21,300 bases of DNA from Candidatus Sumerlaeia bacterium (GTDB lineage Bacteria > Sumerlaeota > Sumerlaeia > SLMS01 > JAHLLQ01), in NCBI GenBank assembly GCA_033761985.1, contig JANRMB010000161.1, forward strand, positions 1 to 21,300. The letters are read 5' to 3'. The translations under genes and the position numbers were made by a program. Every line of letters starts with the position of its first letter. Positions within the stretch are counted from its first letter, which is position 1. Below, piece after piece: positions 1 to 21,300 of this stretch. The notes under the pieces were generated by a model that saw only the letters and a program-made list of their open reading frames with translations, was not told the origin of the DNA and did not search any database.

Positions 1-84
1 CCCCACCGTGGCCGCCTCCACTTCCAGAAATAGACCCATTTCCGCGGAACTACACACCGCCCACAATCAGATTTTCTTACAGAA

Positions 85-125
85 ATTCAGGAAACTCGCA
101 GAACCCGCCGCCAAGCCTTTTCGAA
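85..125. repeat. Direct repeat copy A (about 41-bp core; diverged similarity continues to about position 53). Duplicates the last 10-12 codons plus stop of the PAP2 gene.
   Basis: aattcaggaaactcgcagaacccgccgccaagcctttt (85-121) matches aattcaggatacccgcagaacccgccgccaagcttttt (955-992). On the minus strand copy A still encodes ...FEKAWRRVLRVS*, with only synonymous differences in the RVLRVS codons. Further upstream, 'cgcccacaatcagat' (around 57-71) resembles 'cgcccacatagcagaat' (around 901-917). Confidence 0.75.
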
Positions 126-175
126 TATGTTCAATTTTGAAGCTTATTGACTCACGGAGTTTCGAGCGAGCCTCT

Positions 176-490
176 CTATTTTGAGATCGCCTCGGCACTT
201 GAGATGGATAGCTTCATTCCGAGGCTACGTAACACACTTCCAAGGGTTTCAAGGGTGGGATTTCCCTCTTCGGAAAATGCCTTATAGATGTTCCGACGGC
301 TGACATCGGATTCGCGTGCGATTCTCGTTGCTCCATGAATTTCAATCACTTGCCGCATAGCCAGCAGGAATGCACTGTAATCACCATCCTTTTCGGCTTC
401 CTCAAGGGAGACTTGGAGGAAGCTCCGAGCATAGTCCAAGTCGGCGAGTTGTTCCCGCATGTAATTCTGAAACGTTGGGTAATCAGCCAT
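176..490 (-). CDS. higA: HTH-type antitoxin of a HigB/HigA-like type II TA pair (addiction-module antidote protein, TIGR02684-like), 104 aa
   Basis: The track ORF 176..640 is an in-frame upstream extension. The real start is Met51 ('MADYPTFQNY...'), whose ATG (490..488) overlaps the toxin stop by 8 nt in the classic toxin-first higBA layout. The C-terminal 'LAMRQVIEIHGATRIARESDVSRRNIYKAFSEEGNPTLETLGSVLRSLGMKL' is the conserved HTH of this antidote family. Confidence 0.8.
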   Translation of the reverse strand: MADYPTFQNYMREQLADLDYARSFLQVSLEEAEKDGDYSAFLLAMRQVIEIHGATRIARESDVSRRNIYKAFSEEGNPTLETLGSVLRSLGMKLSISSAEAISK

Positions 491-821
491 TTTCTTTCTC
501 TTCCTTTCGATCAAGGTAATCACGCCAAAATTCATGAGCTTGTTTGATGTCGTGCGACTGGCTTTTCTTATCACCCCCGCATAGCAGAACAACCAAAGTG
601 TTCCCATCTTCACCAAAATAAACCCGATATCCTCCACCAAACGTCATTCTCAGTTCTTGAACACCACCACCAACAGATTTGTGATCGCCAAAGTTGCCAA
701 AGCCAACTCGAAGGATGCGGGCTTCTATCCGCTGACGGGTAGTCATGTCTCGCAAATCAGTTAGCCATTCCAAAAGGGGAACTTTACCGTTTTGCGTTTG
801 GTAGAAGATTATTGTTTTCAT
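483..821 (-). CDS. higB: RelE/ParE-superfamily toxin, HigB-like addiction-module killer protein (TIGR02683-like), 112 aa
   Basis: 112-aa ORF. The signature 'GGVQELRMTFGGGYRVYFGEDGNTLVVLLCGGDKKSQSHDI' matches the conserved core of this killer-protein family (GPGYRVYF...LLCGGDKSSQ). An RBS-like GAAAGGG sits 8 nt upstream of the ATG at 821. The stop overlaps the higA start. Confidence 0.85.
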   Translation of the reverse strand: MKTIIFYQTQNGKVPLLEWLTDLRDMTTRQRIEARILRVGFGNFGDHKSVGGGVQELRMTFGGGYRVYFGEDGNTLVVLLCGGDKKSQSHDIKQAHEFWRDYLDRKEEKENG

Positions 822-843
822 CGCCCTACCCTTTCTTCAATGT

Positions 844-855
844 GCACTATAGTGC
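844..855. promoter_or_regulatory. Perfect 12-bp palindrome GCACTATAGTGC (embedded TATAGT, -10-like) 23-34 nt upstream of the higB start; candidate autoregulatory operator/promoter of the TA operon
   Basis: Read directly: positions 844-855 are self-complementary. TA operons are typically autorepressed by the antitoxin binding palindromes that overlap the promoter. A TTGACT (-35-like) lies at 867..862 on the minus strand, but the spacing to TATAGT is non-canonical. Confidence 0.4.
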
Positions 856-954
856 GCGCGCAGTCAAATGTCATTGTCGCAATCCGCAAGAAAACAAAAC
901 GCCCACATAGCAGAATGTCTGAGTTAGCATAACCTACAGATGATTTGTTAGGTA

Positions 955-996
955 ATTCAGGATACCCGCAGAACCCGCCGCCAAGCTTTTTCCAAA
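955..996. repeat. Direct repeat copy B, the authentic 3' end of the PAP2 gene; partner of 85..125
   Basis: Same alignment as copy A. Copy B is contiguous with the PAP2 reading frame (…NFLEKAWRRVLRVS*, stop at 959..957). Confidence 0.75.
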
Positions 997-1640
997 AAGT
1001 TGGTTTGTTGCAGCAGCATCCAGAAGAGCATCCCCTGCCCCATTCCCACCAACACATCCGAAGGGAAGTGCGCCACATCCATTACCCGACTCCCGATGCA
1101 CAAAATCCCCAGCGCCACAAATAGCGGTGATGCTTTCGGGTAGTACGTGCAATAACCCATCATCAGAAAACCCGCCACTGTGGAATGGCCACTCGGGAAA
1201 CTCCAATAATCGGAATTCAACAGCAGCGACAAATCCTGCCGCCAAGCGACGAAAAATCGCCCCATTTCCTCCAAGGGGACTTCGGCAATAAAATCCTTTT
1301 TGCGATTATACTCGGGCCGCTCCCGACTGAACACAATCTTCAACAGGATATTGAACAATCCCGCCACATAACTCCCCACGATAATCCGAGGGAAGGCACT
1401 GTGGCGGTTTTGACAAAGAAAGAGGATCAGCGCACCGCCCAAAACGATTCCTGCCGTGGAGGCAAAAAACTTCCCGAGCATGAAGAAGTTCTCGTGATCG
1501 AGATACTCCTTCATGAACCTCATCAACTCATCGTTGAAGATCAACTCCACGGGAATCATCCCGAACCCTAGAAGAATCAGGAACAGGCTTGCCGGAAAAG
1601 CCACCGGATAAGAGCGGGGAAGTTCGGCAAGCCAGTTCAT
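957..1640 (-). CDS. PAP2-superfamily membrane phosphatase (phosphatidic-acid phosphatase type 2 / undecaprenyl-PP phosphatase-like), 227 aa
   Basis: Carries the three PAP2 signature motifs: KIVFSRERP (KxxxxxxRP), SFPSGHS (PSGH) and SRVMDVAHFPSDV (SRxxxxxHxxxD). Several hydrophobic spans are present. The start ATG at 1640 lies 2 nt after the thrS stop (1643). Confidence 0.8.
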   Translation of the reverse strand: MNWLAELPRSYPVAFPASLFLILLGFGMIPVELIFNDELMRFMKEYLDHENFFMLGKFFASTAGIVLGGALILFLCQNRHSAFPRIIVGSYVAGLFNILLKIVFSRERPEYNRKKDFIAEVPLEEMGRFFVAWRQDLSLLLNSDYWSFPSGHSTVAGFLMMGYCTYYPKASPLFVALGILCIGSRVMDVAHFPSDVLVGMGQGMLFWMLLQQTNFLEKAWRRVLRVS

Positions 1641-1642
1641 GG

Positions 1643-3802
1643 TTAGAAGGAGAGAGTTGCCTCAGCGGAGATTTTGGCGAGGAACTGTTCGATGGGGATA
1701 GCGCCCTGGTCCCCTTCGGAACGACTCCGAACCGCCACGGTGCGGTTGTTTTGTTCCTGCTCCCCAAGGATGAGCATGTAGGGGATTTTCTGCATTTGGG
1801 CGTCGCGGATTTTGGCTCCGACTTTTTCATCCCCGGCATCGAGCGTGGCACGGATTCCCGCTTTCTTCAGTAGTGCCGTTACCTCACGGGCGTAGGTAAT
1901 GTACTTCTCCGAAAGACTCATGACGCGCACCTGTTCCGGAGCAAGCCACGTGGGGAAGGCCCCGGCGAAGTGTTCGATCAAAATGCCGATGAACCGCTCA
2001 AAGCTGCCGTAGAGAGCGCGGTGAACAACGACGGGCATCGCTTCTCCCCCGTCGCTCGTGGTGTAGCGCAGATTAAACCGAGAAGGAAGCTGGTAATCGA
2101 GCTGAATCGTCGCCACCTGAAACTCACGTTTCAGACAATCGCGTACGATGAAGTCGATCTTCGGCCCGTAGAAGGCGCCATCGCCCTCGTTGATTTTGTA
2201 CTCCATGCCGTTCGCTTCAATCGCCTGCTTGAGTGCTGCTTCGGCACGGTCCCACTGCTCCTGTGTCCCCATGGCCTTCGCCGGTTTGGTGGAAAGAAAC
2301 ACGTTGGCAAATTCCATATCCACCGCCTTGTACACACGGCGAACCATGGCAATCACACGGGTGATTTCCTCGGCAATCATGTCCTCAGAAACAAAGATGT
2401 GGGCGTCGTCCTGACAGAATTGCCGAACGCGTGTGAGGCCGGAGAGCGTTCCGGAAGCTTCGTTCCGGTGAAGTACGCCTTGGTCACTGATGCGCAACGG
2501 AAGCTCACGGTAGCTACGGCGCCGATCCCCGAAAATCAGCATGTGGCAAGGGCAGTTCATGGGTTTGAGCGCCGCCACATCCCCTTCAGAGCCGGAAAGA
2601 AGGATGAACTCCCCTGCACGTTTTTCAAATACCTGCCAATACTTGCTGGCGATTTGTGGGCAAACACGAGGTTCGAGCATCAGCGTGAGGCGCTCTTCCG
2701 GAGTTTTTGCCGCCACAAGTTCTTCGTGGAGGTTTTTCTGATCCTTGATTTCATTCCAGAACTTGTTGGACCACTCCACCACTTCAGCCGGGGTCAGCAT
2801 CCGAGCTTCCTGCCCGGGAACGATGAACATGTCGTCGCGGTAATGCTTCCAGTGACCGCTTGTCTCAAAGAGATCCTTGCGGAAGAGCATCGGCGTAAAG
2901 ACTTCCTGATAATCCTGCTCCAAGTGAAGGTCGCTGCTCATGCGCTTCAGCACATCATACATTACCTTGCCCTTGGGAAGCCAGATGGTCTCCCCTGCCG
3001 CCCACTCATGGTGCATGAAGAGCCCGAGCTCCTTGCCCAACTTCCGGTGGTCGCGCTTTTTGGCTTCCTCTTGAATCTCCAAATATTCCTTGATGCCTTT
3101 TTTATCGGGGAAGGCCGTTCCGCGGATGCGGGTCAACTGATCGTTCCGGGAGTCGCCCTTCCAATAGGCGCCAGCCACGGAGAGGAGCTTGAAGTTCTTC
3201 AGAAAACCTGTATGAGGAAGGTGTGGGCCGCGGCACAAATCCACGAATTCCCCCTGCGCATACACACTGATGGTGTCTCCCTCGGGAATGCGTTCAATCA
3301 AATCCAGCTTATACTTTTCGTTGCGGGCGGCAAACAACTCGCGAGCCTCGGATCGGGTAATCTCCCGACGCCGAATCTCCAACGCCTCATTGGCAATTTT
3401 TTCCATCTCAGCTTCAATACGGGGAAAGTCCTCCACACCAATTGGGGGAACCGTCTTGATATCATACCAAAAGCCCTCTTCCGTGGGAGGGCCGTCTTCC
3501 AAATAGGCGTTCGGGTACAGGCGCTTCACGGCCTGAGCCATCATGTGGGTGCAACTGTGGCGAAGGATTTCCAAAGCCTCAGCATCCCGACTGGTGATGA
3601 GCGAAACTTGAGAATCAGCGGTAATCGGGAGGTTTAAATCCTGGGTTTTGCCGTTCACTTTGACGGCATAGCTCGCCTTGGCGAGACCTTCGCCAATGGA
3701 ACGGGCGATTTCCAGTCCCGTTACAGGGCCGGGAAAAGACTTCTGGGAGCCATCGGGAAGAGTGATCACGACGGGTTGTGCTTGGGGTTCTTGTGTGGAC
3801 AT
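1643..3802 (-). CDS. thrS: Threonine--tRNA ligase (ThrRS), about 719 aa from Met32 of the track ORF
   Basis: N-terminal TGS domain ('VITLPDGSQKSF'); 'RHSCTHMMAQA' corresponds to E. coli RHSCAHLLGHA; 'PMNCPCHMLIF', 'FYGPKIDF', 'RAxxGSxERFIGILxExxAGxFPxWLAP' and a C-terminal anticodon-binding domain are all colinear with E. coli ThrRS. An insertion of about 80 aa precedes the MNCP motif. Start is called at 'MSTQEPQ' (ATG 3802); the 31-codon upstream extension in the track is probably untranslated. Confidence 0.9.
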   Translation of the reverse strand: MSTQEPQAQPVVITLPDGSQKSFPGPVTGLEIARSIGEGLAKASYAVKVNGKTQDLNLPITADSQVSLITSRDAEALEILRHSCTHMMAQAVKRLYPNAYLEDGPPTEEGFWYDIKTVPPIGVEDFPRIEAEMEKIANEALEIRRREITRSEARELFAARNEKYKLDLIERIPEGDTISVYAQGEFVDLCRGPHLPHTGFLKNFKLLSVAGAYWKGDSRNDQLTRIRGTAFPDKKGIKEYLEIQEEAKKRDHRKLGKELGLFMHHEWAAGETIWLPKGKVMYDVLKRMSSDLHLEQDYQEVFTPMLFRKDLFETSGHWKHYRDDMFIVPGQEARMLTPAEVVEWSNKFWNEIKDQKNLHEELVAAKTPEERLTLMLEPRVCPQIASKYWQVFEKRAGEFILLSGSEGDVAALKPMNCPCHMLIFGDRRRSYRELPLRISDQGVLHRNEASGTLSGLTRVRQFCQDDAHIFVSEDMIAEEITRVIAMVRRVYKAVDMEFANVFLSTKPAKAMGTQEQWDRAEAALKQAIEANGMEYKINEGDGAFYGPKIDFIVRDCLKREFQVATIQLDYQLPSRFNLRYTTSDGGEAMPVVVHRALYGSFERFIGILIEHFAGAFPTWLAPEQVRVMSLSEKYITYAREVTALLKKAGIRATLDAGDEKVGAKIRDAQMQKIPYMLILGEQEQNNRTVAVRSRSEGDQGAIPIEQFLAKISAEATLSF

Positions 3803-4076
3803 GGTGGGAAATGACCCAACTTTCAAAGAAACTGGAGCCCTACGAGCGGCTCGGCACGGGAAACAAGCAGCAAAACAAGTGGCACTGTCAACCATGTTGG
3901 GTTTTGAAGGCGAGGTTAGAAGTGTTAGAAATTCACCAATAACCCGTGAGCAGGCAAGGTACTGATTCAGTGGGTAGGGAGTATTTTGAGATCTTGATCA
4001 CCTCTCTCGGATTCTGTAATTGCCCCTCTATTTCGACGTTGAGAGAATAGAATTACCTACCGATCCAGGATTTCGC

Positions 4077-16672: not shown

Positions 16673-16772
16673 CTCCTTTGGAGTAGTGTCGGCGGTGAAT
16701 CCAAGGCCGATGCAACCATCCCAATCGGGTTATGCCTTTTTACACCCAAACCAATTAGGGGAATCCAGTTCG

Positions 16773-18866
16773 ATGAGTCTTTCCAATTTCTTTTCACTAT
16801 TCAAACGTGTCCGCACGGGTCAGGCGATTGTCCGCACCGGCATGGGAGGCCTGCATGTCTCTTTTGATGGCATTATGGTTATTCCGTTTTTCCATCTTTA
16901 TGAGACCATGGACATCTCATTGAAGCGCGTGGAAATTGAACGCGTGGGGAAAAACGGCTTGATTTGTAAGGATAACATGCGTGCCGACATCAAGGTTGCA
17001 TTCTTTGTTCAGGTGAATCGAACCAAGGAGGATGTGCTGCGCGTGGCGGGATCCGTGGGGTGTGCCCGTGCCTCAGACCCCGAAAAACTGACCGAACTCT
17101 TCGATGCCAAGTTCTCCGAGGCTCTCAAAACCGTGGGGAAACACTTCGAGTTCGTGGAACTCTACAACAGCCGCGAACGCTTCAAGGAAGAGATCCTCAA
17201 GATTATTGGTCGCGATCTGAACGGTTACTTTCTCGACGACGCCGCCATCGATTATCTTGAGCAGACCGACAAAGATATCCTCTCCATGGATAACATCCTG
17301 GATGCCGAGGGGATCAAGAAAATCACTCAGCTCACGGCAATAGAAGCCATGCAGGCCAACAACATTGAGCAGGAAAAAAACAAAACCATCACAAAGCAAA
17401 ACGTGGAAGCGGAAGAAGCCATTCTACAATTGAACCGCCAACTGGAGGAAAAGAAGGCGATTCAACAGCGGGAGATCTTCTCCATCCGCGCCCGCGAGGA
17501 AGCCGAGACCAAGAAAATTCAGGCGGAGGAACGCAAGAAGTTCGAAACCGCCCGCATCTCTGCCGATGAGGAAATCGAAATAGCCCAACAGAACAAGGAA
17601 CGCCAAGTTCTTGTGGCGATGCGCAGCAAAGAGGGCACCGATGCCGTGGAGCAGGAACGCGTCATTCGTGCGCGTGATCTGGAAATCAATGAACGCGAAC
17701 GTATTGTAACCATCGCCCAAATTGAAAAAGACAAAGCGGTGGAAGCCGAGAAGAAAGAAATTCAGGAGATCATCCGCGAACGCGTAGTAGTGGAAAAAGC
17801 CGTGGTGGTGGAAGAGGAAGCGATTAAAACAACACGCTCCAAAGCCCAGGCGGATCGCGAAAAACTCGTCGCCTTAACCAAGGCAAGCGAAGAGGCGGAA
17901 GAATCCCTGATACTGGAAGTCAAAAAAGCCGAAGCTCTCAACGAAGCGGCAAACCTCAACGCCAAACGCGTGGTGGTGGAAGCCGAAGCAGAGCAACTCG
18001 CCAGTGCGAAAAAAGCAGAGGCAATCAAAACACTCGCCGATGCGAAAGCCGCGGAAGCCGCTGTGGCTGGTTTGGCCGAAGCCAACGTGATGCAGGCCAA
18101 AGCAACAGCACACTTGAAAGAAGGCGAAGCCCAGGCCGTAGTTTTGGAACGCATGGCCACAGCAGAAGCAAAAGGCATTCAAGTAAAAGCAGAAGCCAAG
18201 CGCCTGGATGGAGCCGCCGAAGCCGAAGTACTCCGCGTGAAGCAGGAAGAAGAAGCCAAAGGATTGATGGCCAAAGCGGAGGCGATGGAAAAAGAGGGGA
18301 CAGTGGAAGCCGCCGTACTTGCCAAGAAGTACCTTGCCGAAGCCGAGGGCATCAGCCAGAAAGCCGACGCCATGAAGAAACTCGACGGCGTGGGGCAAGT
18401 GCACGAGGAATTCAAACTTCGTCTTGCGAAAGAGAAGGAAGTGGAACTCGCCCAAATCGCGATTCAAGTGGATATGGCCAAATCCCAAGCCGAAGTTCTC
18501 GGCGAGGCGTTGCGTTCTGCAAAAATCGAAATCGTGGGCGGAGAAACACAGTTCTTCGATCGAATCGCTGGAGCCATCACCCGTGGGAAAGCCGTGGATC
18601 GTTTGGTGGAAAACAGCACCGTTATCGATCAGGTTCGCCAGGGATTGATCGGTAATGAAGGGGAAAATCTCGCCAAGCTCCGCGAGGTGATTTCCACCAT
18701 GGGATTGAAGGCAGCCGATGTTCGTGATTTGAGTGTTGCAGCAGTATTGGCTCAAATGATTGCGAAGGCGGATAACTCCGAATTGAAAAATACCCTCGTG
18801 GATCTTCTCACCGTTGCTGGAGAAAAAGGCGTCGCCTCAAAACCTGCAGCTTCGTTCATCAGCTAA
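16773..18866 (+). CDS. Flotillin-family SPFH (band-7) domain protein with a long EA-rich coiled-coil region, about 697 aa
   Basis: SPFH core 'QAIVRTGMGGLHVSFDGIMVIPFFH...ISLKRVEIERVGKNGLICKDNMRADIKVAFFVQV', then about 300 aa of E/A/K repeats (flotillin 'EA repeats', for example AEAEAEQLASAKKAEAIKTLADAKAAEAA). The C-terminal 'KIEIVGGETQFF...GAITRGKAVDRL' matches the flotillin C-terminus (KITLVSSGSG...GEVLDILTRL). Start is set at 'MSLSNFF' (ATG 16773, AGGGGAA 11 nt upstream). No N-terminal TM helix is evident. Confidence 0.85.
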   Translation: MSLSNFFSLFKRVRTGQAIVRTGMGGLHVSFDGIMVIPFFHLYETMDISLKRVEIERVGKNGLICKDNMRADIKVAFFVQVNRTKEDVLRVAGSVGCARASDPEKLTELFDAKFSEALKTVGKHFEFVELYNSRERFKEEILKIIGRDLNGYFLDDAAIDYLEQTDKDILSMDNILDAEGIKKITQLTAIEAMQANNIEQEKNKTITKQNVEAEEAILQLNRQLEEKKAIQQREIFSIRAREEAETKKIQAEERKKFETARISADEEIEIAQQNKERQVLVAMRSKEGTDAVEQERVIRARDLEINERERIVTIAQIEKDKAVEAEKKEIQEIIRERVVVEKAVVVEEEAIKTTRSKAQADREKLVALTKASEEAEESLILEVKKAEALNEAANLNAKRVVVEAEAEQLASAKKAEAIKTLADAKAAEAAVAGLAEANVMQAKATAHLKEGEAQAVVLERMATAEAKGIQVKAEAKRLDGAAEAEVLRVKQEEEAKGLMAKAEAMEKEGTVEAAVLAKKYLAEAEGISQKADAMKKLDGVGQVHEEFKLRLAKEKEVELAQIAIQVDMAKSQAEVLGEALRSAKIEIVGGETQFFDRIAGAITRGKAVDRLVENSTVIDQVRQGLIGNEGENLAKLREVISTMGLKAADVRDLSVAAVLAQMIAKADNSELKNTLVDLLTVAGEKGVASKPAASFIS

Positions 18867-18946: not shown

Positions 18947-21300
18947 ATGAGCGTGGAGACAAAAGAGTCGGTTGTGCTGGAAGGCGGAACATACGAAATC
19001 CTCCGCAAGCGCCTGCAGGATCACGCCAAGGATCTTCAGTCGCGGGTGAACGCCCTCAATAGCGAGCGTAAAGCGGTGTTCGGTTCCATCGAGCCCAAAT
19101 TGCTCGCCACGGAACGCATCACCACGGAAAATAACTGCACCCCAAGGGACATCGCTGCCTTGGGGGACACGTTCCTCTTCGCCTACAACGTGCAATTCGG
19201 ACTCAAGTCCACCACAGAGCTTGCAGATGTTTTTTCCGTCTATGAATTGAAGGAAAGTACGTTTGAAGCCCGCCCCCTCTCGCTGCTACAAGATGCCCAG
19301 TTCCTTGCGGATTTCAACAACCTCTACAAGTACTACAAGCACACATTCTTCGATCGCTTCTTTGTGGTGGGGCCCAATCTGTATATGGTTTTCCGCATCG
19401 GAAAATCCCCCACAGACCTCAAGGCGTTCAAGTGGCTCATTACTCCAGAGAAAACACTGAAGTACATCGACAACCGATCTGACCACGAATACGTCTTCCC
19501 CACCCAGCATGAGTTTCAGTGGAAGCGCACCTCCAGAGATCATTATCGGGATGGTCGGCACCCACACATTTCGATTGAAGATCGCGTATTCGTTGAGTGC
19601 GTCGGTGGTGATCTCACCATCAAAATTGAGGATAACACTGAAGTTGGAAAAGGGATTTTCAGCGAACCCGTCAATGACCCGGAGCAAAAACTAGACGACG
19701 CGGAAATTCACTACGCAGTCGTGGGGCATCTAATCCTCTTTAAGATTAAACCCTACCGCGAACTCGCCTACCGTTATTACATCTATAACGAGAAAATCCA
19801 CGAAGCAGGTCGATTTGATGAAATCGCCGATTCCTGCGTGATGCTTCCTGATGACCAGGGATTGATTTTCCCCAACGGCTTTTATTTGGTCTCCGGCGAT
19901 TACAAACGATTCGATTTCAAGCTGGAGAAGATGCTCTTTGAGCGGCGCATCACTTCACCCAACGGCGAAGATACACTGTATGTTTTCTACAATCGTGAGT
20001 CCGGGCTTTTCCTGCTCCTGAGCTATAACCTTATCGATCAATCGGTGAAAACTCCGATTCAGTGCCAAGGGTATGCCTTTTTTCACCAAGGAGAGATGCT
20101 TTACTTCCGAGCGGAAAGCTCCCCACAAAAGCACCATGCTGTGCAAGTGTGGCAAACCCCGTATGTGTGCCCCGACTATGTGCCGCCCGTGGAGCAAAAA
20201 AGTTTTCTTTTCAAAATAGGCAACAAAGACATCGTTCGTGCCATGGCGGAAAGCCAGAACATCATCAACCTAACCCAGCGCGAGGACTCCTACCAAAGCC
20301 TTTACGATGATATCTACGCGCTGAGTGTTTCCGTTCTGGATTCCTACTTCTGGATCAACAATCCCGAGGCGCACAACCTGGGCGAGGCGCTGGCCAACGT
20401 TCGGGATTCCGCCTCCGCCGCGATTGATGAATTCGACAAAGTTCGCCTCATTCGGAAGACCACCGCAGACCGAATCGGAGAAGTTCAAACAAGGGCCGAG
20501 AAGCTCCTCAAATCCATCAAACCTGAACTCATGGAACGAGTGGATGCCTTTGTGGGAAGCCTCTCCCAGTTGCGCACACTGCGGGGTGAAATCATCGCAT
20601 TGCGCGAACTTCGCTATGCGGATCTCAACACAATCCAATCCTTGGAAACCCGTGTGGTGGAGCAGTCTCAGAAACTCTCCGAAGCCACCGTGGAGTTCCT
20701 TCTCAAACCCGATGCCCTGAGCGTGTACCACGAAAAAGTGGAAGCCGTGAATGCCAAAACCACGGGAATGCAACGCGCTGTGGAAGCCAAGGATATCGAG
20801 GAGGAAATCACCACCATCTCCAAAGAAGTGGAAACCATGATTGAAGTCGTCGGGAATTTGAAAATTGCCGATGCCACCAAATCCACGCAAATCATCGATG
20901 GTTGCTCCGCCATTTTCACGCGACTCAATACGGTACGGGCAGAGCTTCGCAACCGGAAGAAAAAACTCCAAAGTGTGGAAGCTGTGGCGGAATTCAACGC
21001 CCAACTCAAACTGCTGGATCAAAGCGTGGTGAGCTATCTGGATATCGCAGACTCACCGGCGAAATGCGATGAGTATCTCAACAAACTCCTGGTGCAGTTG
21101 GAGGAATTGGAAGGCCGGTTTGCGGATTTTGAAGAGTACGTGATTCAACTTTCCGAAAAGCGCGCCGAGCTGACCAGTGCGATGGAATCCCGCAAGCTTG
21201 CCTTGCTCGAGGAAAAAAACAAACAAGCCACGGGGTTTCAAGCCGCAGCAGACCGCATTCTGAAAGCAATCGCCGGCCGTGTGGATGCCTTCAAATCCAT
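18947..21300 (+). CDS. Large conserved-hypothetical protein, 5' part (at least 784 codons; continues past the window end). N-terminal globular, beta-rich half of about 470 aa and C-terminal coiled-coil half of at least 300 aa. Not in the ORF track because it has no in-window stop.
   Basis: Reading frame 2 is free of stop codons from 18938 to 21300; every line was checked codon by codon. A consensus SD AAGGAGG (18927-18933) precedes GTG at 18938 and ATG at 18947 (MSVETKESVVLEGGTYEILRKRLQ…). Composition is protein-like. The C-terminal part is heptad-rich (…LRTLRGEIIALRELRYADLNTIQSLETRVVEQSQKLSEATVEF…LVQLEELEGRFADFEEYVIQLSEKRAELTSAMESRKLALLEEKNKQ…). No Walker A/B, GTPase or other catalytic motif is recognisable. 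The antisense ORFs 20270..21022 and 20668..21009 are rejected. Confidence 0.75.
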   Translation, partial: MSVETKESVVLEGGTYEILRKRLQDHAKDLQSRVNALNSERKAVFGSIEPKLLATERITTENNCTPRDIAALGDTFLFAYNVQFGLKSTTELADVFSVYELKESTFEARPLSLLQDAQFLADFNNLYKYYKHTFFDRFFVVGPNLYMVFRIGKSPTDLKAFKWLITPEKTLKYIDNRSDHEYVFPTQHEFQWKRTSRDHYRDGRHPHISIEDRVFVECVGGDLTIKIEDNTEVGKGIFSEPVNDPEQKLDDAEIHYAVVGHLILFKIKPYRELAYRYYIYNEKIHEAGRFDEIADSCVMLPDDQGLIFPNGFYLVSGDYKRFDFKLEKMLFERRITSPNGEDTLYVFYNRESGLFLLLSYNLIDQSVKTPIQCQGYAFFHQGEMLYFRAESSPQKHHAVQVWQTPYVCPDYVPPVEQKSFLFKIGNKDIVRAMAESQNIINLTQREDSYQSLYDDIYALSVSVLDSYFWINNPEAHNLGEALANVRDSASAAIDEFDKVRLIRKTTADRIGEVQTRAEKLLKSIKPELMERVDAFVGSLSQLRTLRGEIIALRELRYADLNTIQSLETRVVEQSQKLSEATVEFLLKPDALSVYHEKVEAVNAKTTGMQRAVEAKDIEEEITTISKEVETMIEVVGNLKIADATKSTQIIDGCSAIFTRLNTVRAELRNRKKKLQSVEAVAEFNAQLKLLDQSVVSYLDIADSPAKCDEYLNKLLVQLEELEGRFADFEEYVIQLSEKRAELTSAMESRKLALLEEKNKQATGFQAAADRILKAIAGRVDAFKS

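Follow-up and report, generated by a model that had tools for sequence, protein, structure and literature searches.

How does a toxin–antitoxin (TA) pair come to lie between two copies of the end of a neighbouring gene? This is the question raised by a 21.3-kb contig from a metagenome-assembled genome (MAG) of Candidatus Sumerlaeia, which was analysed over its whole length and is referred to here as the window. Its minus strand carries a gene for threonyl-tRNA synthetase (ThrRS), a gene for a PAP2-family phosphatase and a TA gene pair, and the last codons of the PAP2 gene are found a second time beyond the antitoxin gene. The movement of chromosomal TA modules outside plasmids, phages, transposons and integrons is poorly documented, and the usual label for such modules is “mobile cassettes”. 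The initial annotation of the locus described a recently acquired cassette bracketed by att-like direct repeats. The reading preferred here, and considered moderately probable, is that of an insertion with long target duplication, the repeats being duplicated target DNA as opposed to sites borne by the element. It is put forward because of the anatomy of the locus itself and by analogy with a sister locus, L035, for which a relative with an uninterrupted site is available.

The Duplicated End of the PAP2 Gene

The PAP2 gene (957..1640, minus strand) is intact and encodes a protein of 227 amino acids (aa) with a PF01569 match of 68.8 bits. Its last 14–18 codons and its stop codon lie inside the proximal copy of a direct repeat. 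A repeat search places the two copies at 84–131 and 954–1001, an ungapped match of 48 nucleotides (nt) at 88% identity with a start-to-start distance of 870. Within this match is an exact core of 20 nt, CGCAGAACCCGCCGCCAAGC, at 97–116 in the distal copy and 967–986 in the proximal copy. With up to three mismatches allowed, the core occurs twice in the window, against an expectation of zero from shuffled sequences. Gapped local alignment with strict scoring extends the repeat to 1001..937 against 131..68, and a permissive alignment extends it to 1014..937 against 143..68, with 62 of 79 positions identical (approximately 78 nt at 78%). The gapped alignments score 69 and 42, compared to shuffle maxima of 28 and 17. 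The repeat is thus real, and its description in the initial annotation as a 40-bp core that grows to about 90 bp with divergence was roughly right, the aligned lengths being approximately 48 and 65–78 nt.

On the minus strand, the proximal copy (937..1014) is the true end of PAP2, consisting of the codons NFLEKAWRRVLRVS, the stop at 957–959 and approximately 20 nt of 3′ flank. Its distal counterpart (68..143, minus strand) is a dead 3′ fragment of the same gene, in which ASKLNIFEKAWRRVLRVS, 17 sense codons lacking a start codon, is enclosed between two stops and followed by approximately 19 nt of 3′ flank. The earlier observation that the repeat reproduces the final codons and stop of PAP2 with synonymous changes alone in RVLRVS is borne out, as CGG/CGA and GTA/GTT are the sole differences in these codons. 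Across the repeat as a whole the copies differ by 12% in the 48-nt core and by approximately 22% overall, with insertions and deletions, and the non-coding part is about two-thirds identical. The repeat is not palindromic, and its coding sequence is conserved at the protein level in PAP2 orthologues (FEKAWRRV in the window, FERTWCRV and FERGWRRV in the orthologues).

The Inserted Cassette

The DNA between the two copies forms a cassette of approximately 0.8 kb (144..936, minus strand), measuring 793 nt by the permissive repeat limits and 805 nt by the strict ones. The spacer between the PAP2 and toxin genes is 132 nt long. A σ70-like promoter, ATGACA-17-TATAGT, is proposed at 846..874 (minus strand) from its consensus match. 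A perfect palindrome of 12 nt, GCACTATAGTGC, can be read at 844–855, where it overlaps the −10 element, and is likely to be the HigA operator. An operator-like palindrome (GTAGCTTATAAGCTAC-like) that overlaps the −10 region is also found in the sister loci L038, L041, L045 and L035, approximately 20–35 nt 5′ of the toxin start. Across the five cassettes its position and symmetry are conserved, and its sequence is not strictly so.

The first gene of the pair (483..821, minus strand) encodes a higB-type toxin of 112 aa, which matches TIGR02683 with 115.7 bits (cutoff 62.85) and belongs to the RelE/ParE family (PF05973). When 35 members of the family are aligned, 20 residues are invariant, and the toxin has all of them. 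A search of PDB sequences with the toxin gave no significant match, identity to any solved HigB being approximately 20%. Its AlphaFold model, which has a predicted local distance difference test score (pLDDT) of 92.5, finds its best match in Streptococcus pneumoniae HigB (6af4; template modelling score 0.72–0.75, E = 3e-6). It also matches Mycobacterium tuberculosis HigB1, solved on the ribosome (7nbu), and the ParE-type gyrase poisons are less close. The model thereby assigns the toxin to the fold of HigB, a messenger RNA nuclease (mRNase), and not to a DNA-cutting fold. Because the modelled toxin is closest to solved HigB toxins, “higBA” is a fair name for the predicted pair. A profile match to the serine recombinase YokA (E = 0.046) was treated as noise.

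The second gene (176..490, minus strand) encodes a higA-type helix-turn-helix (HTH) antitoxin of 104 aa, with a PF21716 match of 51.2 bits (cutoff 27), a TIGR02684 match of 50.8 bits that falls slightly under the cutoff of 53.7, and a weak HTH_3 match. The order is toxin-first, and the antitoxin ATG (490–488) lies within the end of the toxin gene, an overlap of 8 nt. The 44-nt tail after the higA stop (132..175, minus strand) folds into a hairpin of −9.5 kcal/mol. With promoter, palindrome and hairpin all present around two intact genes, the cassette is predicted to be transcriptionally self-contained. The initial annotation was therefore sound on this point: the TA pair is a self-contained and compact unit inserted where PAP2 ends, with the duplicated gene end on either side.

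The composition of the insert differs modestly from that of its surroundings. The guanine-plus-cytosine (GC) content is 0.466 in the insert and 0.514 in the contig, which puts the insert in the lowest 1.3% of equal-sized contig windows (mean 0.516). The GC content at third codon positions (GC3) of higB is 0.398, the lowest of 14 genes, the others ranging from 0.47 to 0.66. Trinucleotide usage in the insert is not unusual. The three GC values sampled in the initial annotation are exact (0.383 at 481–540, 0.500 at 241–300 and 0.583 at 1981–2040), and the windowed comparison gives the contrast a modest but real basis. No terminal inverted repeats were seen to bound 132–953, and an attC-like palindrome is absent at either end. 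As had been stated, the contig is devoid of recombinases of its own: the domain search recovered no integrase or transposase domain in any large open reading frame (ORF) of the 21.3 kb, nor in the insert.

Flanking Repeats in the Wider TA Family

A scan of metagenome contigs for the TA family yielded 80 loci. In each, the 400 nt located 5′ of the toxin gene were compared with the 400 nt located 3′ of the antitoxin gene, and a repeat was counted when its score exceeded 13, the maximum among mismatched-flank nulls (n = 368). The family statistics refer to 56 testable and unrelated loci, all short metagenomic ones, with the present window excluded, and the thresholds were picked after the data had been seen. 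Flanking repeats were found in 8 of the 56 TA-centred tests and in 19 of 568 displaced windows (3.3%; Fisher p = 0.0015). When two tandem TA arrays are removed, 6 of 56 remain (Fisher p = 0.018). A looser comparison of flanks by blastn and tblastx gave weak matches around 19 of 62 TA pairs and 20 of 92 displaced controls. Weak matches being no rarer in the controls, only strong ones fitting tightly around the cassette were used.

The repeats of the sister loci are drawn from a variety of host sequences. That of L035 (44 nt, 89%) comprises the stop and the 12 codons before it in a lactonase gene that runs convergently, that of L038 (47 nt, 81%) the first 16 or so codons of a divergent radical-SAM-like gene, and that of L045 (117 nt, 86%) lies within a small ORF split by the insertion. 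Two further repeats are found in L041 (21 nt, 95%) and L047 (151 nt, 91%). The inserts are 722–1044 nt long, and the termini of five repeat-flanked members have no common sequence, the internal operator aside. Because the host genes, the parts of genes and the repeat lengths (21–151 nt) all vary while the cassette ends are unconserved, the comparison of sequences argues for duplication of whatever target was struck, as opposed to an att site borne by the element.

The distal copy of the repeat begins 44, 43 and 46 nt past the antitoxin stop in the window, L045 and L035, respectively. The three loci are unrelated and the spacers so defined have no sequence in common, and each can form a hairpin. 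The similar spacing may be a coincidence or may reflect a constraint set by a terminator. The TA pair of L045 (61–1245) lies just 3′ of an ORF resembling YD/Rhs repeats (...YRYDPTGQL...), and the split ORF may belong to a toxin-immunity region.

The two arrays were dropped as cases of flanking repeats, as the “repeats” in them are tandem TA copies. L059 (2471–3875) is a head-to-tail array of two full toxin–antitoxin pairs and L075 (1697–3390) an array of at least three. Their units are approximately 715–745 nt long, the paralogues have diverged, and the DNA between units is 78–83% identical. Such arrays could equal the amplification step that has been proposed for repeat-flanked restriction–modification (RM) units. 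In L060 (1–1568) a TA pair lies between two 3′ fragments of ThrRS, the downstream one being 5′-truncated and frameshifted. This locus was not used as evidence, as both ThrRS pieces are fragments and the contig begins within the repeat.

A Single-Copy Site and Its Decay Series

The origin of the repeat can be followed most closely at L035. In a relative, L084, whose lactonase gene is 91% identical to that of L035 in nucleotide sequence, the gene end and the DNA that follows are contiguous with no TA between them. The junction in L084 aligns with the fragment copy and far flank of L035 at 83.5% over 260 nt. From the junction alignment, the duplicated target in L035 runs from approximately 63 nt before the lactonase stop to approximately 35 nt after it. 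The repeat of L035 thus matches a single-copy host site and, to judge from this alignment, is derived from the target. At L035:2332–2760 (reverse-complement 860–1288), the last 8 or so codons and the stop of the antitoxin (PAGRTARV and stop) are read from target-derived DNA. As this antitoxin end is homologous to the DNA past the lactonase stop of L084, the insertion junction lies inside the antitoxin ORF.

The fragment copy of L035 is 77% identical to relatives, compared to 90% for the intact copy and approximately 91% for the rest of the gene. Such values are to be expected of a duplicate that formed in situ and later decayed. A mosaic test of the 3′ end of the L035 lactonase gave no clear drop in identity against close relatives.

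Other members of the series retain parts of the cassette. L085 (91%) has the same junction with an antitoxin remnant of 138 nt, and at L085:1340–1523 this 138-nt antitoxin 3′ end is accompanied by 45 nt of the region upstream of the toxin. In L086 (approximately 81% in nucleotide sequence), the antitoxin gene occupies the corresponding position and the far flank is another one, and in L087 (approximately 79%) there is none. Within L086:3724–4380, the antitoxin gene is full, and the space left for the toxin is too short, with no gene called there. The series suggests that the toxin was lost first. By parsimony, the insertion at the L035 site is old and has in certain lineages degenerated or disappeared; a precise loss through the repeats may account for L084.

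Relatives of the PAP2 Locus and of the TA Pair

A search for homologues of the PAP2 protein returned one relative at 57% identity (L001/L002), and a scan of a genome collection returned one at 56% (L003). In both, ThrRS is followed by PAP2, then by DNA that differs between them, and then by a shared gene of approximately 668 aa; ThrRS is much more similar than PAP2 in each. The TA pair is absent 3′ of PAP2 in these two orthologous loci, the ones obtainable, in line with the suggestion that it is not part of the core genome. As these loci are without TA and have differing DNA 3′ of PAP2, the site is variable in the lineage and the TA pair is not ancestral to the group. The 3′ flanks of PAP2 in these distant relatives are unalignable with the window, which places comparison at the level of the junction beyond reach. 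The presumed original DNA 3′ of PAP2 is seen in the window at 1..67, up to the contig end, and has no similarity to the DNA 3′ of PAP2 in L001.

The stretch between PAP2 and the gene of approximately 668 aa is a local hotspot of variable content in these Sumerlaeota relatives. In L001 (3322–3700) it holds an ORF of 51 aa on the opposite strand, and in L003 (6697–9175) approximately 2.4 kb that is rich in AT and contains repeat-rich ORFs.

Relatives of the toxin number more than 900 across many phyla, the best being 64% identical, and a near-identical cassette was not found elsewhere. The TA family is found in 938 plasmid records, many of them conjugative or mobilizable. Among 5,426 complete Escherichia coli genomes, queried with L088:1180–1862, it occurs at 524 places, of which 523 are plasmid-borne (e.g., IncX4). 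In this species, the distribution indicates what is essentially a plasmid addiction module, and the cassette of the window is probably of plasmid ancestry. E. coli chromosomes were rejected as a source of empty sites, 523 of the 524 places being on plasmids.

Proposed Mechanism and Age of the Insertion

Under an insertion with target duplication, a HigB/HigA cassette of approximately 0.8 kb, complete from promoter to hairpin, would have entered a Sumerlaeia chromosome at the 3′ end of PAP2. The event would have duplicated a target of approximately 65–78 bp, comprising the last 14–18 codons, the stop and approximately 17–20 nt further downstream. Joined to PAP2, one copy would keep the gene whole, and the other, beyond higA, would persist as a non-functional fragment. 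A dedicated recombinase would not be needed, as illegitimate or short-homology recombination of the host could have made the insertion. For example, a linear fragment may have been joined at staggered positions, the template may have been switched in the course of replication, or a circularised fragment may have undergone a single crossover. By analogy with known TA systems, the pair would then be retained through addiction, with HigB as an mRNase and HigA as its labile repressor-antidote. The direct repeats could later mediate precise loss of the cassette through homologous recombination.

The event appears to be old. The initial annotation had taken the cassette for a recent acquisition, which does not fit the divergence of the two copies (12% in the core and approximately 22% overall, with insertions and deletions). 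At the sister site, the L035 insertion is common to lineages that are approximately 80% identical in the flanking gene. Despite this age, the composition of the cassette is not fully ameliorated.

Points Against the Proposal and Alternative Explanations

Several points weigh against an insertion with target duplication at the PAP2 locus. The reading draws partly on analogy with L035, and an empty site at PAP2 itself lacks a close relative, since the 90%-identity cluster of the PAP2 protein has one member and the closest relatives found are 56–57% identical. Past the distal repeat copy, 67 nt remain before the end of the contig, and a recombinase acting in trans would be compatible with a view confined to a single contig. 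Approximately 10% of family loci have flanking repeats, and the rate in displaced-window controls, 3.3%, is above zero. Finally, the two copies differ at six positions of the 48-nt core, five of them third codon positions, a bias that extends to 15 of 20 differences across three loci (P = 0.006 against an expectation of 45%). This would be unexpected under simple decay of a fragment and is suggestive of an imported diverged allele instead. The bias shrinks to 9 of 15 in L035 once the whole repeat is counted, which leaves codon position as a suggestive, and there a weaker, means of discriminating between duplication in situ and import.

The alternative that survives best is homologous import, although it is unlikely. 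Diverged Sumerlaeia DNA, in which a PAP2 3′ end was already joined to the TA pair, would have recombined with the resident PAP2 end, so that one of the two copies is xenologous. This could have occurred through a Campbell-type single crossover in the 20-nt core or through homology-facilitated illegitimate recombination anchored in PAP2 or ThrRS. The mostly synonymous third-position differences are those to be expected if both copies had been coding, and a perfect core with mismatches on both sides would also be in keeping with a crossover. In the lactonase series, moreover, the same cassette keeps its place beside the anchor gene, and the flank on the other side changes (L035 compared to L086/L087). 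Against this, an earlier event that linked the cassette to a PAP2 end would still be required, and for RecA, 48–78 nt at 78–88% identity make a very poor substrate. The intact copy of L035 (90%) agrees with its gene (approximately 91%), the fragment (77%) is the outlier, and the mosaic drop at the 3′ end is missing. In the window, coding and non-coding differences are few, and their counts suit both models.

Site-specific integration, as implied by the term “att-like” in the initial annotation, is quite improbable. The cassette would here be a miniature element that brought a replacement PAP2 end on its attP and, like cis-mobilisable elements, relied on a tyrosine or serine recombinase encoded elsewhere, or the remnant of a larger island whose integrase has been lost. 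Integrative elements typically enter the 3′ ends of genes and restore the reading frame, which is what is seen at PAP2. An identical core of 20 nt between imperfect arms also resembles attL and attR, and in three loci the antitoxin stop is followed by the downstream copy at a distance of 43–46 nt. However, neither the insert nor the 21.3-kb contig encodes a recombinase, and no tRNA, tmRNA or Rfam family was found on the contig. Across the family, the repeats come from different host genes and different parts of genes, span 21–151 nt and share no conserved terminal sequence. In L035, the repeat corresponds to host DNA present in a single copy, some of it non-coding flank, and the last codons of the antitoxin are read from target-derived DNA, which would not be expected of a defined attP. 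The att-like interpretation is for these reasons not retained.

An assembly artefact, in which two strain variants of the PAP2 end were joined around the TA cassette as a chimera, is very improbable. The source is a MAG contig that ends 67 nt past the distal copy, and contig ends are often at repeats. Yet the longest exact match between the copies (20 nt) is below the usual assembly k-mers, a k-mer common to the cassette tail and the PAP2 interior would be needed and none was seen, and the same architecture comes up again in assemblies made independently in other studies. A cassette that fell by chance between copies of a dispersed repeat already in place, one of the repetitive extragenic palindromic (REP) type, has nothing beyond the presence of two copies to recommend it and can be set aside as barely credible, as the window holds those two copies only, their coding sequence is conserved in PAP2 orthologues and they are not palindromic.

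Comparison with Known Systems

With target duplication retained as the preferred reading, the closest counterpart of the locus is found among RM units, for which insertion with long target duplication was defined (Nobusato et al. 2000, Gene 259:99; Furuta, Abe and Kobayashi 2010, PMC2853133). The footprint of such units consists of repeats of more than 30 bp, an absence of mobility genes, an insert of less than 20 kb and atypical GC content (PMC2853133). The repeats often overlap the 3′ end of a gene, as with the 46-bp repeats that cover 15 bp of HI0105; they are unique in the genome, measure tens to hundreds of bp, and flank RM units more commonly than average genes (PMC2853133). In the view suggested by Furuta et al., the footprint stems from something that RM systems have in common, such as double-strand breakage (PMC2853133). 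In two reviews, this mode is brought up for RM systems alone (PMC3874152, PMC2654758), and in a mycoplasma, a TA pair with flanking direct repeats has been described as bearing “scars of recombination” (PMC8562856). No description of type II TA cassettes inserted with a long duplication of the target was found in the literature, of which the coverage was incomplete. The footprint is of a known kind, and the TA class of cargo seems not to have been previously described for it.

The window resembles these RM units in holding a small addictive gene unit, here a complete TA unit, in an insert of approximately 0.8 kb. No mobility gene is present on the contig, or on the side of the insert that is seen, and the repeats, at 48–78 nt over the PAP2 end, exceed 30 bp. 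Duplicated host sequence, an insert of atypical GC content and enrichment of repeats at the level of the family are further points of likeness. The cargo, in contrast, is a type II TA pair whose toxin is modelled with the mRNase fold of HigB and not a DNA endonuclease. Given a cargo of this fold, double-strand breaks made by the cargo cannot drive the event here, and in an RM-like reading the footprint would come from a general pathway of the host as opposed to breakage encoded by the cargo. The window repeats also differ in being 78–88% identical, compared to mostly more than 93% in RM units, and the documented empty site is that of a sister locus, L035, not that of PAP2.

The TA pair itself resembles the HigBA modules of the HI1419/HI1420 family (TIGR02683/TIGR02684), with overlapping toxin-first genes, an HTH antitoxin, a palindromic operator and a HigB-like fold of the RelE/ParE superfamily. 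The solved relatives used for comparison are HigBA of S. pneumoniae (6af3/6af4), HigB1 of M. tuberculosis (7nbu) and HigB2 of Vibrio cholerae (5ja8). The present pair differs from these in its identity of approximately 20% and its chromosomal location in a poorly sampled phylum, and its activity, which in HigBA systems is ribosome-dependent cleavage of mRNA by a toxin that the antitoxin neutralises, is predicted from homology and fold.

Displacement arrays provide a second parallel. Effector-immunity loci of the type VI secretion system (T6SS) and Rhs loci with orphaned 3′ fragments form such arrays by homology-facilitated illegitimate recombination (PMC5361080). As in the window, a new module lies beside an intact gene, an orphaned 3′ fragment is left downstream and no recombinase is involved. 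However, displacement arrays replace the variable 3′ region of the same gene family, whereas the window has gained an unrelated cassette with a short duplication that includes non-coding flank.

Elements that integrate between attL and attR share with the window the repeats bracketing foreign DNA, the restored gene end and the core within imperfect arms. The locus differs from them in having no integrase and no tRNA target, and in an “att” that changes in sequence and length among family members. The TA cassettes of integrons, such as higBA of the Vibrio superintegron, are likewise compact, have their own promoter and are bounded by repeated sequence. Unlike these, the window has no attC palindrome, GTTRRRY core, integron integrase or array; its neighbours are ThrRS and PAP2, and its repeats are the coding sequence of a housekeeping-type neighbour. 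Insertion sequences, miniature inverted-repeat transposable elements and transposons are set apart by the absence of terminal inverted repeats and by a duplication of 48–78 nt, compared to 2–14 bp.

Implications for TA Mobility

It is tentatively proposed that the type II TA cassettes belonging to this family, and possibly TA cassettes at large, behave like RM units, that is, as recombinase-free hitch-hikers that enter chromosomes with target duplications both long and variable, are held by addiction and can be excised precisely. The footprint is a concrete one, namely a promoter-to-terminator cassette with a host duplication of 20–150 nt and no recombinase, and it matches the description of RM units given by the Kobayashi group. 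If general, it would be a signature that can be searched for in genomes and MAGs to date and trace the acquisition of TA pairs, and it would account for orphan fragments of gene ends beside TA loci. It would also make the mechanism of long target duplication one that is driven by the host and independent of nuclease activity in the cargo. For the window alone the outcome is modest, namely an old and ordinary TA insertion that has left PAP2 intact.

Other Features of the Contig

The ThrRS gene (3895..1643, minus strand) was assigned by ORF and domain search. Two ORFs are without a Pfam match at E ≤ 0.001, one at 16686–18866 (plus strand, 726 aa) and one at 20270–21022 (minus strand, 250 aa). 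An ORF of 555 aa at 1970–3637 (plus strand) lies antisense to the ThrRS gene and is almost certainly a shadow ORF as opposed to a gene.

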